Positions 154 to 18,577 of a stretch of 21,109 bases of DNA are shown one piece after another. The notes beneath the pieces are model-generated. The model saw only the letters and a program-made list of their open reading frames with translations, had not been told where the DNA came from and searched no databases. The stretch spans positions 1 to 21,109 of the IMG/VR virus record IMGVR_UViG_3300035659_001474, one strand, 5' to 3'. Numbering within the stretch: position 1 is the stretch's first letter; the number at the start of each line of letters is the position of its first letter. The stretch is from a virus. Its lineage: Duplodnaviria; Heunggongvirae; Uroviricota; Caudoviricetes. The position numbers were made by a program, and so were the translations under genes.

Positions 154-230
154 TGGTACCCCGTGCTGGAATCAAACCAGCGGCCCTCAATTTAGAAAAT
201 TGATGCTCTATTCAGCTGAGCTAACGGGGC
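154..230 (-). tRNA. tRNA-Arg(UCU)
   Basis: Full cloverleaf, TCAAT-TTTCTAA-ATTGA anticodon arm, encoded CCA; T-loop TTTGATT. Confidence 0.95.
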
Positions 231-858: not shown

Positions 859-861
859 AAT

Positions 862-936
862 TGGAGATTATGGACATTGAACCCATCTGATAATTCCTGA
901 TTGCAAATCAGGTGACTCCAAGCAGTCCCAATCCCC
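862..936 (-). tRNA. tRNA-Ala(UGC)
   Basis: CCTGA-TTTGCAA-TCAGG arm; acceptor GGGGATT/AATCTCC retains G3.U70; atypical D- and T-loops. Confidence 0.85.
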
Positions 937-949
937 ATTTATTGTTTAC

Positions 950-1639
950 TTAATCTTCTCTAACATTCACATGTTTTTCTACATAATCCCTGTTTTTAGA
1001 AAATATTGGTATTTGCAAATCGACTTCATTGTCAACTATACAAAAACCTCGTTTTCTTACTACAGGATACTTGTCGAAATTAATACCCTTTTGAAACAAC
1101 AATTCTTGAATATCACTACATGATTTCTGAAACAACTCTTTGTGCGAATAATTCTCACGACCAGCAAACTGTATTGCATTTCGCGTTGCGTCAATTTGCC
1201 TCCAGACGAAATAATTAGTCACTTCATCTTGAGGTACAGAAAACACTCTACTGTCAAAACACACATTCTTACCATAGAGCCTCGAGAACACACTGCTAGC
1301 TAATGAAGCTGAAATCGATATCATCTTACAGACATCATAATCAAACCACGAATCAGTTGTTATCGTCTTATAGTCAGTCAACAGGAAACTAATCTCATCT
1401 GACTGACAATAGCAAAATTTGCAACCTTGTATGTCTTTAGCTACTACTTTCGCCGTTTCAATCATCTGGTCAACAAATTCCATTGACCATCCCTTACCAA
1501 ATCTCTTACGAGTAATAGTATGAAATGCTCGACCATCTATTCTCAAAATCACCGGTATCCTATGAGGCAATGTCCAGTGAAAACATGACTCGTAGCGCTT
1601 CATACGATCGCCAATAGACAGTCCGTCAGACTTGCTCAT
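950..1639 (-). CDS. thg1: tRNA-His guanylyltransferase / Thg1-like protein (3'-5' polymerase)
   Basis: DRMKRYE, ILRIDGRAFH, YCQSDEISFLL, FDSR, NYFVWRQIDATRN motifs. Confidence 0.95.
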   Translation of the reverse strand: MSKSDGLSIGDRMKRYESCFHWTLPHRIPVILRIDGRAFHTITRKRFGKGWSMEFVDQMIETAKVVAKDIQGCKFCYCQSDEISFLLTDYKTITTDSWFDYDVCKMISISASLASSVFSRLYGKNVCFDSRVFSVPQDEVTNYFVWRQIDATRNAIQFAGRENYSHKELFQKSCSDIQELLFQKGINFDKYPVVRKRGFCIVDNEVDLQIPIFSKNRDYVEKHVNVRED

Positions 1640-1866: not shown

Positions 1867-1941
1867 TGGTGGGAGCAGGTAGAATTGAACTACCATCTAC
1901 TGCATATCAGACAGTGGTCCTAACCGTTGAACGATGCTCCC
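1867..1941 (-). tRNA. tRNA-Ile(GAU)
   Basis: ACTGT-CTGATAT-GCAGT arm, TTCAATT T-loop, encoded CCA. Confidence 0.95.
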
Positions 1942-2365: not shown

Positions 2366-2438
2366 AGCCGCCGAGAGGGTTCAAACCTCCGACCACCGCA
2401 TTACAGGTGCGGTGCTCTATCAACTGAGCTACGGCGGC
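2366..2438 (-). tRNA. tRNA-Thr(UGU)
   Basis: CCGCA-CCTGTAA-TGCGG arm (C33); acceptor GCCGCCG/CGGCGGC. Confidence 0.92.
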
Positions 2439-2473: not shown

Positions 2474-3076
2474 TCATGACTCTAATACTACATTCCAGTA
2501 GATGTAATCTACCCACGTTTCATGTGGTATTTCACCCGCCAACCTACTTACTAAATGTGCAGGAGCTGCTTTATCAAGTTTTGGCGCAAAAGGTTGTCGA
2601 ATCAAAGCTCTCTTGTAATCATTGATAGATTTGTGACCCTTTTGACCATTACAACGAATACAACTGACGACGATGTTCTCCCAGCAAGTTTTACCACCTC
2701 GACTTCTTGGTATCACGTGGTCAAAAGTAAAACCTGAAAGTGACACTTTTTTACCACAATACATACAACATCCGGCATCACGAATGTAGACATTCTGTCG
2801 ACTAAATGGCAATACCTTAACATATTTCTTAGGTATATATTCAGAATGAATACATCGAATGACCGATGGAATAGGCATCGATATCCAGCTACTAGTTGAC
2901 TTGGCAACTAATTTGTCAGTGATAATAGCATTCGATGATCGTACTATAGTATTTTCGTAGTTAGCCAAAGCAACTGCTTTTTCAGAAGCTACTAATACAA
3001 TAGCACGTCGAGTATTTACCAATGACACTGGTGTTGACCAACTGTTTAATACCAAAGTCTGTAAAGGATTTGACAT
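2474..3076 (-). CDS. HNH endonuclease (McrA/HNH_5-like)
   Basis: TLVLN N-terminus; RDAGCCMYCG, TFDHVIPRSRGGKTCWENIVVSCIRCNGQKG. Confidence 0.93.
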   Translation of the reverse strand: MSNPLQTLVLNSWSTPVSLVNTRRAIVLVASEKAVALANYENTIVRSSNAIITDKLVAKSTSSWISMPIPSVIRCIHSEYIPKKYVKVLPFSRQNVYIRDAGCCMYCGKKVSLSGFTFDHVIPRSRGGKTCWENIVVSCIRCNGQKGHKSINDYKRALIRQPFAPKLDKAAPAHLVSRLAGEIPHETWVDYIYWNVVLES

Positions 3077-3097
3077 CTAACACCTCATTTTAGTAAG

Positions 3098-3169
3098 TAC
3101 TGGAGGGCAGAGTCGGACTGCCGATCAACTGATTATGATTCAGTGGTTTTACCGCTAAACTACTCCAGT
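3098..3169 (-). tRNA. tRNA with CAU anticodon (elongator Met or Ile2)
   Basis: ACTGA-ATCATAA-TCAGT arm; T-loop TCCGACT; acceptor ACTGGAG/CTCCAGT. Confidence 0.85.
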
Positions 3170-3174
3170 GCAAT

Positions 3175-3210
3175 AAAAAAGCCTCGTCGAAGTTAATCGG
3201 CGAGGCTTTT
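3175..3210 (-). terminator. Intrinsic terminator of putative attenuator 1
   Basis: AAAAGCCTCGCCGA-TTAACT-TCGACGAGGCTTTTTT hairpin followed by a U tract. Confidence 0.9.
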
Positions 3211-3236
3211 AACATTCTAGTTTGTTTGAGCCTCGC

Positions 3237-3344
3237 CTATGGTAGTTGTCCCATTCTAATTGTTGCATCATGGGCAAATGCACACACATTGCCTGTATTA
3301 CTACGGGTAATGAGTTGCAACCATTTTGGTAGATACTTTGACAT
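3237..3344 (-). CDS. Putative 35-aa attenuator leader peptide
   Basis: MSKYLPKWLQLITRSNTGNVCAFAHDATIRMGQLP; its TAG overlaps the antiterminator strand GGCGAGGCT (3237-3229); SD weak (AAGG). Confidence 0.6.
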   Translation of the reverse strand: MSKYLPKWLQLITRSNTGNVCAFAHDATIRMGQLP

Positions 3345-3412
3345 TATATTTTGCCTTTTTGTGTCCTTAAACAGTAATCACATTAAATGTCGTAGTGTTT
3401 CCACTAATACTA

Positions 3413-3441
3413 ATTTAATCTGTAATTGTTGTTCTTATCAA
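3413..3441 (-). promoter_or_regulatory. Possible sigma70-type promoter for attenuator 1
   Basis: TTGATA-17 nt-TTAAAT. Confidence 0.35.
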
Positions 3442-3445
3442 CACA

Positions 3446-3979
3446 TTAAAACGGCAAATAGTAACTAAAAGCATCATCACATGTTTGTTCTAGAGTGTCA
3501 TGTATTAGAACTTCTGGACAATCTTTCAAAAATCTGTATGCTATATAACGATGACCTGAAAAGTCTTTGTCAATACCGATAGCTATCTCAGTTAGACCTC
3601 GATCATACTTACATTTCCATTCACTAAGTTCAAATCTAGTAGTTTGCGCAAATGCACGCTTGCAATCATGTTCATATTCATTTGCCAACCAAAATAAGAT
3701 TACACCATTAGTAGCTGCTCGATTCAACCAATAAATTTCCCAATCTATTTGTTCATAATATTTCTTAGCTCTAAATTCAGTATCGGCTGTCAATCTTCGC
3801 GGTGATGCAATATGAAAATTACTTTCATTTATTGAATAGTTAAAACCTTTCAAAAAGGATTTTGACAAGTAATCAATAGCTTGCGATTGCCAATCAAGCG
3901 TTCCTTGAATTGGTCCTGCAAGAAACAATACAAAATCTTTGTTAGCTATCTGTGGGCGTTCTGGTGGTCGAATAATCAT
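3446..3979 (-). CDS. Nucleoside 2-deoxyribosyltransferase-like protein
   Basis: FLAGPIQG..DWQ, PRR, QIDWE, ILFW, QTTRFEL motifs. Confidence 0.85.
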   Translation of the reverse strand: MIIRPPERPQIANKDFVLFLAGPIQGTLDWQSQAIDYLSKSFLKGFNYSINESNFHIASPRRLTADTEFRAKKYYEQIDWEIYWLNRAATNGVILFWLANEYEHDCKRAFAQTTRFELSEWKCKYDRGLTEIAIGIDKDFSGHRYIAYRFLKDCPEVLIHDTLEQTCDDAFSYYLPF

Positions 3980-10085: not shown

Positions 10086-10105
10086 AAATCAGTCTCTATT
10101 AAAAA

Positions 10106-10418
10106 TGCCCAAGGTCGGACTCGAACCGACACGGCCTTGCGACCAAGAGATTTTACATGCTAACTACGCCTTTCGACGCCGGTTTTCACCGTTTGTAGTC
10201 TGGACTTTGTCTTCACCATCGTGAGAATTTCTCACATTAGGTGGATGCCGTTAAGTCTCTACACCTTCTAATACTTTTCAGTACTAGCTTGGCTCGGCGT
10301 TGGGTCGAGTTTAACCTCAGGCCGTTCACCGAATTTGACATCTTACATCTATACCGTTTCCAGTATAGCGACCCTCATTTGCGAAAGTCTCTAGTGTCTG
10401 CCATTCCACCACTCGGGC
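10106..10418 (-). tRNA. tRNA-Leu(UAA) split by an intron (exons 10418-10386 and 10155-10106)
   Basis: Joining the exons gives AGAGA-CTTAAAA-TCTCT, a long variable arm and TTCGAGT T-loop. Confidence 0.92.
10156..10385 (-). ncRNA. Group I self-splicing intron (IC3-like), 230 nt
   Basis: 5' exon ends in U, intron ends in G; GACU/GGUC P1; AAATTCGGTGAA, GTAGAGACT and GAAGACAAAGTCCA core elements. Confidence 0.9.
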
Positions 10419-10444
10419 AATCTGCACAATCTGAAACTTGTAAG

Positions 10445-17372: not shown

Positions 17373-17438
17373 TGGCAGGCGTGCAAGGACTCGAACCCTG
17401 GTGGGAATCAGCCATTCTAGCCGCTGAATTACACGCCT
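17373..17438 (-). pseudogene. Truncated tRNA (CCC, Gly-like) missing the 3' anticodon strand and variable loop
   Basis: 66 nt; perfect acceptor AGGCGTG/CACGCCT, D-arm, T-arm and CCA, but GCTGA-TTCCCA has no partner strand. Confidence 0.7.
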
Positions 17439-18103: not shown

Positions 18104-18121
18104 AAACGCTTGTCAGATTTG

Positions 18122-18271
18122 TCATTGTCCATTTGGATCCGCTCCTTTTAAGTTGTCAATAGGCCAGACCAATTTTGTGATTGGTTTTGGTTTCCGGCCC
18201 CATTTTTGTTCTTTTGACATTTCGACAACATCTTTTGGAAGCAAGCATTTTGAGACTTCAAATTTTTCCAT
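18122..18271 (-). CDS. Small hypothetical protein (49 aa), first gene after attenuator 2
   Basis: AAGGAGG SD; MEKFEVSKCLLPKDVVEMSKEQKWGRKPKP... Confidence 0.65.
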   Translation of the reverse strand: MEKFEVSKCLLPKDVVEMSKEQKWGRKPKPITKLVWPIDNLKGADPNGQ

Positions 18272-18291: not shown

Positions 18292-18327
18292 AAAAACCCC
18301 GTCGATCTGTTTGACCGGCGGGGTTTT
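18292..18327 (-). terminator. Intrinsic terminator of putative attenuator 2
   Basis: AAAACCCCGCCGGTC-AAACA-GATCGACGGGGTTTTT. Confidence 0.9.
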
Positions 18328-18356
18328 GTGTTTAGCCTAAGTGTTTTAGGATTAAC

Positions 18357-18491
18357 TCAAACCCCGCCTGTCCATATCTTATCATAGCCTTCGTATCCAA
18401 GCGACAGCCATGATAATTTGGACAACTCCAATACCACGTGTCGTTTGACACGTTCTATTGATAGCGTGGTATGAAGTTGTAGGGTTTGCAT
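18357..18491 (-). CDS. Putative 44-aa attenuator leader peptide
   Basis: GGAG SD; MQTLQLHTTLSIERVKRHVVLELSKLSWLSLGYEGYDKIWTGGV; last codons and TGA overlap the antiterminator strand GGCGGGGTTT (18368-18359). Confidence 0.7.
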   Translation of the reverse strand: MQTLQLHTTLSIERVKRHVVLELSKLSWLSLGYEGYDKIWTGGV

Positions 18492-18577
18492 TATTGACTC
18501 CGGATTAGCTTCTAGTTTTCTTGTTTATTCTTAAATATAAAACAATAATCACTTTAATAAGCGTAGATAAACCATGT

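Follow-up and report, generated by a model that had tools for sequence, protein, structure and literature searches.

The stretch of DNA analysed here (the window; 21,109 nucleotides) is the first 21.1 kb of a 128-kb record of an uncultured phage that is 62% complete (genome G000). Nearly all of its genes, together with 20 tRNA genes, lie on the minus strand. Followed along that strand, a nucleoside-deoxyribosyltransferase-like gene ends at position 3446 and gives way to a 100-nt gap, a short leader ORF, a terminator and a tRNA-Met gene, an arrangement that we call unit 1. Past tRNA-Met, the operon continues with an HNH endonuclease gene, tRNA-Thr(UGU), two small ORFs, tRNA-Ile(GAU), a gene of the Thg1 family, tRNA-Ala(UGC) and tRNA-Arg(UCU), and then reaches the end of the contig (Table 1). 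The gap between the T tract of the terminator and tRNA-Met is too small for a separate promoter. The CAU tRNA listed here as tRNA-Met could instead be of the Ile2 type.

Table 1 Predicted elements of the leader units and genes of the operon behind unit 1. Positions are those of the window unless a genome position is indicated.
Feature	Position	Strand	Details
Sigma-70-like promoter candidate, TTGATA-N18-TAAATT	3412-3441	-	In the 100-nt gap; consensus match only
Bipartite motif, CTACG-N10-TGATTA	3375-3395	-	Common to all tRNA-block leader units
Shine-Dalgarno-like AAGG	3354-3357	-	9 nt 5' of the leader ATG; kept before the ATG in G001 and L022
Leader ORF of unit 1	3237-3344	-	35 sense codons plus TAG; ATG 3344-3342, TAG 3239-3237
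Putative regulatory run, GCA ACA ATT AGA ATG	3252-3266	-	Ala Thr Ile Arg Met; leader codons 27-31
Segment 1, antiterminator 5' arm	3229-3237	-	GGCGAGGCT; hairpin 3237-3199, -18.4 kcal/mol
Segment 2, common to both structures	3198-3207	-	Antiterminator 3' arm 3207-3199; terminator 5' arm 3207-3198
Segment 3 and T6	3174-3189	-	Terminator 3' arm 3189-3180; T6 3179-3174
tRNA-Met (CAU)	3097-3169	-	First gated gene, 4 nt past the T tract
HNH endonuclease gene	2474-3076	-	Between tRNA-Met and tRNA-Thr; Pfam PF14279 and PF01844
tRNA-Thr (UGU)	2366-2438	-	
tRNA-Ile (GAU)	1867-1941	-	
Thg1-family tRNA-His guanylyltransferase gene	950-1639	-	Pfam PF04446, 2e-23; phage homologues exist
tRNA-Ala (UGC)	861-937	-	
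tRNA-Arg (UCU)	154-230	-	Final tRNA before the contig end
Unit 2, head of the main tRNA array	18292-18566	-	Motif 18566-18546; leader ATG 18491 to TGA 18359-18357
Unit 2 pairing elements	Segment 1 18368-18359; segment 2 18326-18317; terminator 18323-18297	-	C.A mismatch
Unit 3, head of the third tRNA block	Genome 36448-36190		Outside the window

Public phage records searched with megablast and blastn contained no DNA relative of this region. In IMG/VR, a single related genome was found (G001; neighbouring protein 82% identical), and a scan of metagenomes added two loci, L019, which is the same as G001 in this region, and L022, in which the neighbouring protein is 51% identical; the other metagenome loci carrying the neighbouring gene were not syntenic. 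In G001, L019 and L022 alike, unit 1 is followed by Met, Thr, Ile, Ala and Arg tRNAs in the order seen in the window. Unit 1 of L019 and of L022 holds exactly those five tRNAs, and G001 has two extra, odd ones.

The peptide encoded by the leader ORF of unit 1 contains 19 of the 20 amino acids (Glu is missing) and uses 27 distinct codons without repeats, as the initial annotation had described. Its Shine-Dalgarno match is weak (AAGG at a 9-nt spacing). The sequence of the TTGATA-N18-TAAATT promoter candidate is the same in G001, and TTGATA is also found upstream in L022. The initial annotation had raised a rival promoter, a TATAAT with TTTAAG 17 nt upstream, from which transcription would begin downstream of the start codon. 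This element does overlap the leader ATG; it is absent from both relatives, which weakens the objection, although the transcription start still stands at the level of a candidate.

The bipartite motif CTACG-N10-TGATTA occurs exactly three times in the 128-kb genome, once 5' of each unit, and is kept in G001 and L022. The copies are at 3375-3395 and 18546-18566 of the window and at 36428-36448 of the genome, all on the minus strand. In G001, a fourth copy lies 5' of a gene for a PolX-like protein, so the motif is not exclusive to tRNA units. When IMG/VR was searched with the motif, G001 and three unrelated chance matches without tRNAs were returned, and nothing more. A sigma-70 promoter was considered for this motif and rejected because the spacing does not fit. 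It is probably an element of the promoter or operator type, and perhaps a promoter used by a phage factor.

At the end of the leader, three segments can pair in two ways. The 9-mer GGCGAGGCT (3237-3229) begins at the G of the leader's TAG and is the perfect complement of AGCCTCGCC (3207-3199), exactly as first annotated, so that an antiterminator with a 9-bp perfect helix can form. A 21-nt spacer separates these two arms. Segment 2 can instead pair with segment 3 to give a terminator (3207-3180) with an 8-nt loop and a folding energy of -15.3 kcal/mol. The initial annotation had also placed a C.A mismatch in the terminator where the antiterminator pairs perfectly, and this holds: C3200 opposes A3187 in the terminator, whereas in the antiterminator it forms a pair with G3236. 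Owing to this mismatch, the terminator was overlooked by a standard terminator scan; a custom scan found it at -13.7 kcal/mol. The mismatch sits near the loop, two pairs from that end of the terminator, and displacement of segment 1 by segment 3 would have to begin there. We infer that this conserved mismatch probably shields an antiterminator that has already formed from displacement by segment 3.

Several measures set this stretch apart. Allowing up to one mismatch, the 9-mer occurs four times in the window compared with 0.73 expected, and three of the four occurrences fall within this 58-nt stretch. The 181-nt region has a folding z-score of -3.0, and its minimum-free-energy structure holds the antiterminator, not the terminator. 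Antiterminator and terminator energies are -18.4 and -15.3 kcal/mol in the window, -20.5 and -15.3 in G001, and -15.2 and -14.5 in L022, and the antiterminator is transcribed before the terminator. For each of 20 terminator-like hairpins across the 128-kb genome, we also looked upstream for the longest stretch complementary to the 5' arm. The three tRNA-block terminators have complements of 9, 10 and 7 nt, the last growing to 12 when G.U pairs are counted, compared to 7 nt in one of the other 17 hairpins and 6 nt or fewer in the rest.

Five adjacent leader codons match the operon that follows. The run at codons 27-31 contains one cognate codon for each downstream tRNA (Met, Thr-UGU, Ile-GAU, Ala-UGC and Arg-UCU), forming a compact block in an otherwise unconstrained leader; the two extra tRNAs of G001 have no obvious codon in it. 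Among 256,626 six-frame five-codon windows of the genome the run is unique, and its chance of lying inside the leader is ~1e-4. The run was recognized post hoc, and independent support was then sought. Each regulatory codon is present only once in the leader, and a single-codon design may make sensitivity or stalling weak.

Comparison with the relatives shows which parts of unit 1 are kept. The leader frame stays open over 35 codons in G001 and over 31 in L022, with nucleotide identity to L022 near random. The peptides of G000 and G001 are 86% identical, and the L022 leader MHLFIRTSTWLYNTASDMRSNFCATIRMEIT has only ATIRM in common with that of the window. Aligned to L022, the window sequence is identical at 29/78 positions (37%) in the leader 5' of the run, at 15/15 in the run, at 6/14 from the run to segment 1, at 9/9 in segment 1, at 10/21 in the antiterminator loop and at 28/34 from segment 2 to the T tract. 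In both, 17 nt separate segment 1 from the Met codon of the run. The initial annotation had centered the unit on the overlap between the stop codon and the antiterminator; this is true in the window but is not the conserved feature, as the L022 leader ends in TAA one codon earlier, 2 nt 5' of the arm.

The terminator, including its loop, is 100% identical between G000 and G001. Its C.A mismatch is kept in three lineages, a neighbouring terminator pair covaries from C-G to U-A, and the antiterminator keeps 9-11 bp across lineages by means of different end pairs; this covariation is thin, with one double change and three independent lineages in all. A conserved 17-nt block includes TAGAAT, and it could be kept for some other reason at the DNA or RNA level. 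In a quick scan, no unit of this kind turned up in the tRNA region of Xanthomonas phage XacN1, and the design is thus not universal.

To relate ribosome position to the choice of hairpin, we masked a 28-nt ribosome footprint at every codon (A-site -15 to +12) and computed the pair probability of the terminator. In these in silico folds, the probability was 0.01-0.10 with the A site at any codon as far as the one after the run; from the second codon after the run to the stop it was 0.93-0.97, with the same step in G001 and L022. By this step, the run occupies the last positions at which a stalled ribosome would leave segment 1 free. Folded without a ribosome, the RNA of unit 1 adopts the antiterminator, that is, the readthrough form. 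Unit 1 is a three-segment design that lacks a protector or pause hairpin of the trp segment 1:2 type.

The window genome contains two further units of this kind and L022 a fourth. The common layout of the three units of the window genome is the CTACG-N10-TGATTA motif, a Shine-Dalgarno-like element, a short ORF and a C.A-mismatched terminator. In each unit, a segment at the end of the ORF is complementary to the 5' arm of the terminator, and the arm sequences vary between units while the complementarity is kept. The leader of unit 3, MRITTNNTFSNSNCTCNFCFSNSRNELVEFA, uses AGY for all of its Ser codons, and 20 of its 30 codons are for Thr, Asn, Phe, Ser (AGY) or Cys; it is followed by Phe(GAA), Asn(GUU), Ser(GCU), Cys(GCA) and Thr(CGU) tRNA genes, of which the Asn gene is interrupted by a group I intron. 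In L022, the unit 4 leader MTIRRQPQQQRRPQPGRCMLK lies 5' of Pro, Gln, Pro, Pro and Arg tRNAs. The G001 counterpart of the unit 3 leader has its residue order shuffled and its composition kept, a pattern expected of a regulatory leader but not of a peptide with a function of its own. Unit 3 has the full four-segment layout: as in trp, its codons 2-5 pair with segment 1. In equilibrium folding of units 3 and 4, the terminator always won and there was no switching, so the decision there would have to be kinetic, as in trp.

We then counted cognate codons in a table of three leaders by three tRNA sets, taking the phage's own long ORFs as background and applying standard wobble rules. Leader 3 matched its own tRNA set at 20/30 codons (p = 1e-10; 16/26 and p = 4e-8 for its counterpart in G001) and set 2 at 4/30 (background 0.44). 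For leader 2, 26/43 codons matched its own set (p = 0.025, background 0.44), compared with 1/43 for set 3 and 2/43 for set 1. Leader 1 showed no overall enrichment for its own five-tRNA set (8/34, p = 0.18) and likewise none for the other sets, so its codon case rests on the run. Across the table, enrichment lies on the diagonal and the off-diagonal cells are at or below background. We take the composition of the unit 3 leader to be decisive for how these leaders should be interpreted.

Unit 1 thus combines a short ORF with a start codon and ribosome-binding site, cognate codons, a terminator, an antiterminator and, in silico, the geometry that links them. It is likely, in our assessment of the sequence and the folding models, that unit 1 is a ribosome-mediated leader-peptide attenuator that senses tRNA supply and gates five tRNAs, the HNH endonuclease and Thg1. 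This attenuator reading is strongly supported by the anatomy, the energetics, the codon match, the paralogues and the conservation. RNA polymerase would transcribe the 35-codon leader with a ribosome trailing behind it. A ribosome that reaches the stop codon would cover segment 1 (3237-3229), leaving segment 2 to pair with segment 3, and transcription would end at the T tract. A delay on GCA-ACA-ATT-AGA-ATG, or a failure of ribosome loading, would leave segment 1 free to pair with segment 2 once the latter is made; the resulting antiterminator, at least as stable as the terminator, would let the polymerase read on into the tRNA genes. As the codons are those read by the operon's own five tRNAs, the leader would gauge the supply of precisely these tRNAs by negative feedback, and the phage would probably make them when ribosomes run short of them. 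The initial annotation had proposed that a ribosome at the stop masks the antiterminator and causes termination, and that a stalled or absent one permits readthrough, a scheme with which the folding models, the paralogues and the relatives all agree. Leader translation, ribosome-polymerase coupling, regulated readthrough and the role of the mismatch are inferred throughout from the sequence.

Part of the initial annotation went further and read the leader as a general sensor, blind to particular codons. On that account, any slowing or absence of the ribosome would count, and the codon match would be a coincidence or a by-product of codon usage. The diverse, repeat-free peptide (19 amino acids, 27 codons) fits it, as does the ribosome-free fold, by which any loss of translation would give readthrough, and enrichment for the five-tRNA set is not significant (8/34). 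However, the conserved run of five cognate codons argues against codon-blind sensing, and in the footprint model it sits at the last positions where a stalled ribosome would leave the antiterminator arm free, directly before the boundary in all three lineages. The run is also unique in the genome, with a 1e-4 chance of lying in the leader, and matches L022 at 15/15 positions while the remaining leader is at random-level identity. The sister leaders are plainly written in the codons of their own tRNAs, as the diagonal of the cross-table indicates. We consider a general translation-rate sensor unlikely on this balance.

Two further explanations dispense with a regulatory role for translation. 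The hairpins and the 17-nt block might serve maturation of the tRNA precursor, for example as a site for a double-strand nuclease, or bind a phage regulator, with the ORF left untranslated. As tRNA-Met starts 4 nt past the T tract, the hairpin would lie in the 5' leader of the precursor; the complete identity of terminator and loop between G000 and G001 and the dedicated CTACG-N10-TGATTA, which suggests a protein factor, are compatible with such an element, and leader translation is itself a prediction. Yet two hairpins that exclude each other by competing for one arm, with a T tract behind them, are the hallmark of termination control and not of processing. Moreover, the ORF, its start codon and the AAGG are kept in three lineages despite sequence turnover (the chance of 31-35 random codons staying open is ~0.1), unit 3 conserves the composition of its leader and not its sequence, and no Rfam family matches. 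We therefore regard a processing, stability or protein-binding element as quite improbable. Alternatively, the ORF could simply encode a small protein and have a leaky terminator behind it, with both the arm complement and the codon run as accidents. The 86% peptide identity between G000 and G001 would be expected of such a gene, and conserved small protein genes do occur nearby, such as the 49-codon gene past unit 2. But the peptide is not conserved in L022 beyond ATIRM, a long upstream complement is characteristic of the three tRNA-block terminators of this genome, and the design recurs with unrelated sequences in four units, which makes this explanation very improbable indeed.

The attenuator reading places unit 1 beside the leader-peptide attenuators of enterobacteria, such as trpL, hisL, pheL and leuL and the multivalent leaders of thr and ilvGMEDA. 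Like the trp, his, phe and leu type, it has a short leader with regulatory codons, the position of the ribosome would select the hairpin, and the 5' arm of the terminator can pair instead with an upstream segment. As in the thr and ilv leaders, several different aminoacyl-tRNAs are predicted to be sensed. Unlike the attenuators of amino-acid operons, unit 1 is phage-encoded and gates tRNA genes, so that the tRNAs sensed are also the product. It carries one codon per tRNA in place of the tandem repeats of one codon found in classical attenuators, and it differs further in the conserved C.A mismatch of its terminator and in the absence of any sequence or Rfam relationship. A protector hairpin is a usual feature of trp-type attenuators, though not one that every attenuator needs; as unit 1 has none, loss of translation would lead to readthrough, in contrast to the super-attenuation of the trp type.

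Two other classes of control bear comparison. T-box riboswitches (RF00230) and unit 1 both rely on terminator readthrough through an antiterminator that is tied to the state of specific tRNAs. The T-box, however, recognizes uncharged tRNA itself, by means of a specifier codon and the T-box sequence, acts free of the ribosome and controls synthetase and amino-acid genes; read as a T-box, unit 1 would need five specifiers for its five tRNAs. The unit 1 region had no match to the Rfam T-box model at the gathering threshold or at E-values up to 5, and a search of all Rfam returned sub-threshold hits only, to families that contain terminators (PyrR, 22.9 bits compared with a threshold of 54; L10 leader, 22.8 compared with 44). 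A T-box riboswitch, with its Stem I specifier loop and its conserved T-box sequence in the antiterminator bulge, was rejected on the lack of an Rfam match. In pyrBI-type attenuators, a closely following ribosome blocks the terminator hairpin, so that coupling gives readthrough. Both there and in unit 1, the outcome would be set by how close the ribosome is to RNA polymerase along a leader ORF that extends up to the terminator, but the sign is opposite: in unit 1, a ribosome at the end of the leader would permit the terminator.

To our knowledge, the control of phage tRNA gene expression is essentially unknown. Phage tRNA genes are usually seen as a fixed supplement to codon usage or as spares against host defences that cleave tRNAs. 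A full-text search of ~8.4 million papers and preprints found no description of such control for tRNA genes. What is new here is the target (tRNA genes) and the logic, in which the leader codons are those read by the gated tRNAs. If the attenuator reading is true, the phage would have a self-adjusting tRNA supply, a textbook mechanism of amino-acid operons would extend to tRNA genes and to viruses, and the leader would reveal which tRNAs a phage treats as limiting. For the annotation of tRNA-rich phages, this yields a rule: look for leader codons that match downstream anticodons together with an upstream complement of the terminator 5' arm. A more speculative extension, which we hold to be possible but doubtful, is that each tRNA block carries a codon 'barcode' leader and is switched on only when its own tRNAs fail, as might happen early in infection with the host tRNA pool degraded or under an anticodon nuclease. 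The units would then trigger tRNA replacement as a counter-defence, with the C.A mismatch serving as a kinetic lock.

Additional observations concern the terminators and the surroundings of the units. C.A-mismatched terminators on the minus strand were found at 18297-18323 and 3180-3207 of the window and at 36193-36219, 37253-37279 and 45405-45432 of the genome. A C.A mismatch on the minus strand reads as a G.U pair on the plus strand and makes the hairpin there more stable; T runs on the plus strand also follow two of these terminators, which look bidirectional. Directly 3' of the unit 2 terminator is a 49-codon ORF (window 18121-18270, minus strand) with a strong AAGGAGG ribosome-binding site, which is conserved as a protein in G001. 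Past the unit 3 terminator, G001 (L012, 1570-1645) carries the 5' half of a truncated tRNA-Phe and repeats the post-terminator sequence, an arrangement that looks like a recombination scar.

The third tRNA block ends with an amber suppressor-type tRNA (CUA; genome 33583-33657, minus strand, in G000 and L011 3990-4063 in G001). With this tRNA present and leaders 1 and 3 ending in TAG, we considered whether recoding or suppression of TAG is part of the switch. We dropped this idea: recoding left no trace in the ORF statistics, the L022 leader ends in TAA and the frame past the TAG is not conserved.

Other tRNA genes of these genomes have unusual structures. In tRNA-Leu(UAA) (window 10105-10435, minus strand), for which ARAGORN made no call, the anticodon loop is split by a group I intron (RF00028, 10177-10395, 56 bits) at the classical insertion site of the tRNA-Leu intron in cyanobacteria and plastids. 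Another group I intron (RF00028, 58.8 bits) splits tRNA-Asn(GUU) of G000 (genome 35795-36058, minus strand; L013 2795-3058), whose exons join into the anticodon loop CUGUUAA; the same tRNA is intact in G001. A 63-nt tRNA-like sequence at 17376-17438 of the window (minus strand), detected by Rfam only (35 bits), lies where G001 has tRNA-Trp; its anticodon arm is indistinct, and it may be a decayed gene. Finally, G001 carries two closely similar tRNA genes in tandem 5' of tRNA-Ala (L009, 7036-7185) that are absent from G000 and L019; their anticodon loops have 8 nt (CUCUUGGU and CUCUUUUU), and they may be quadruplet decoders or defective copies.
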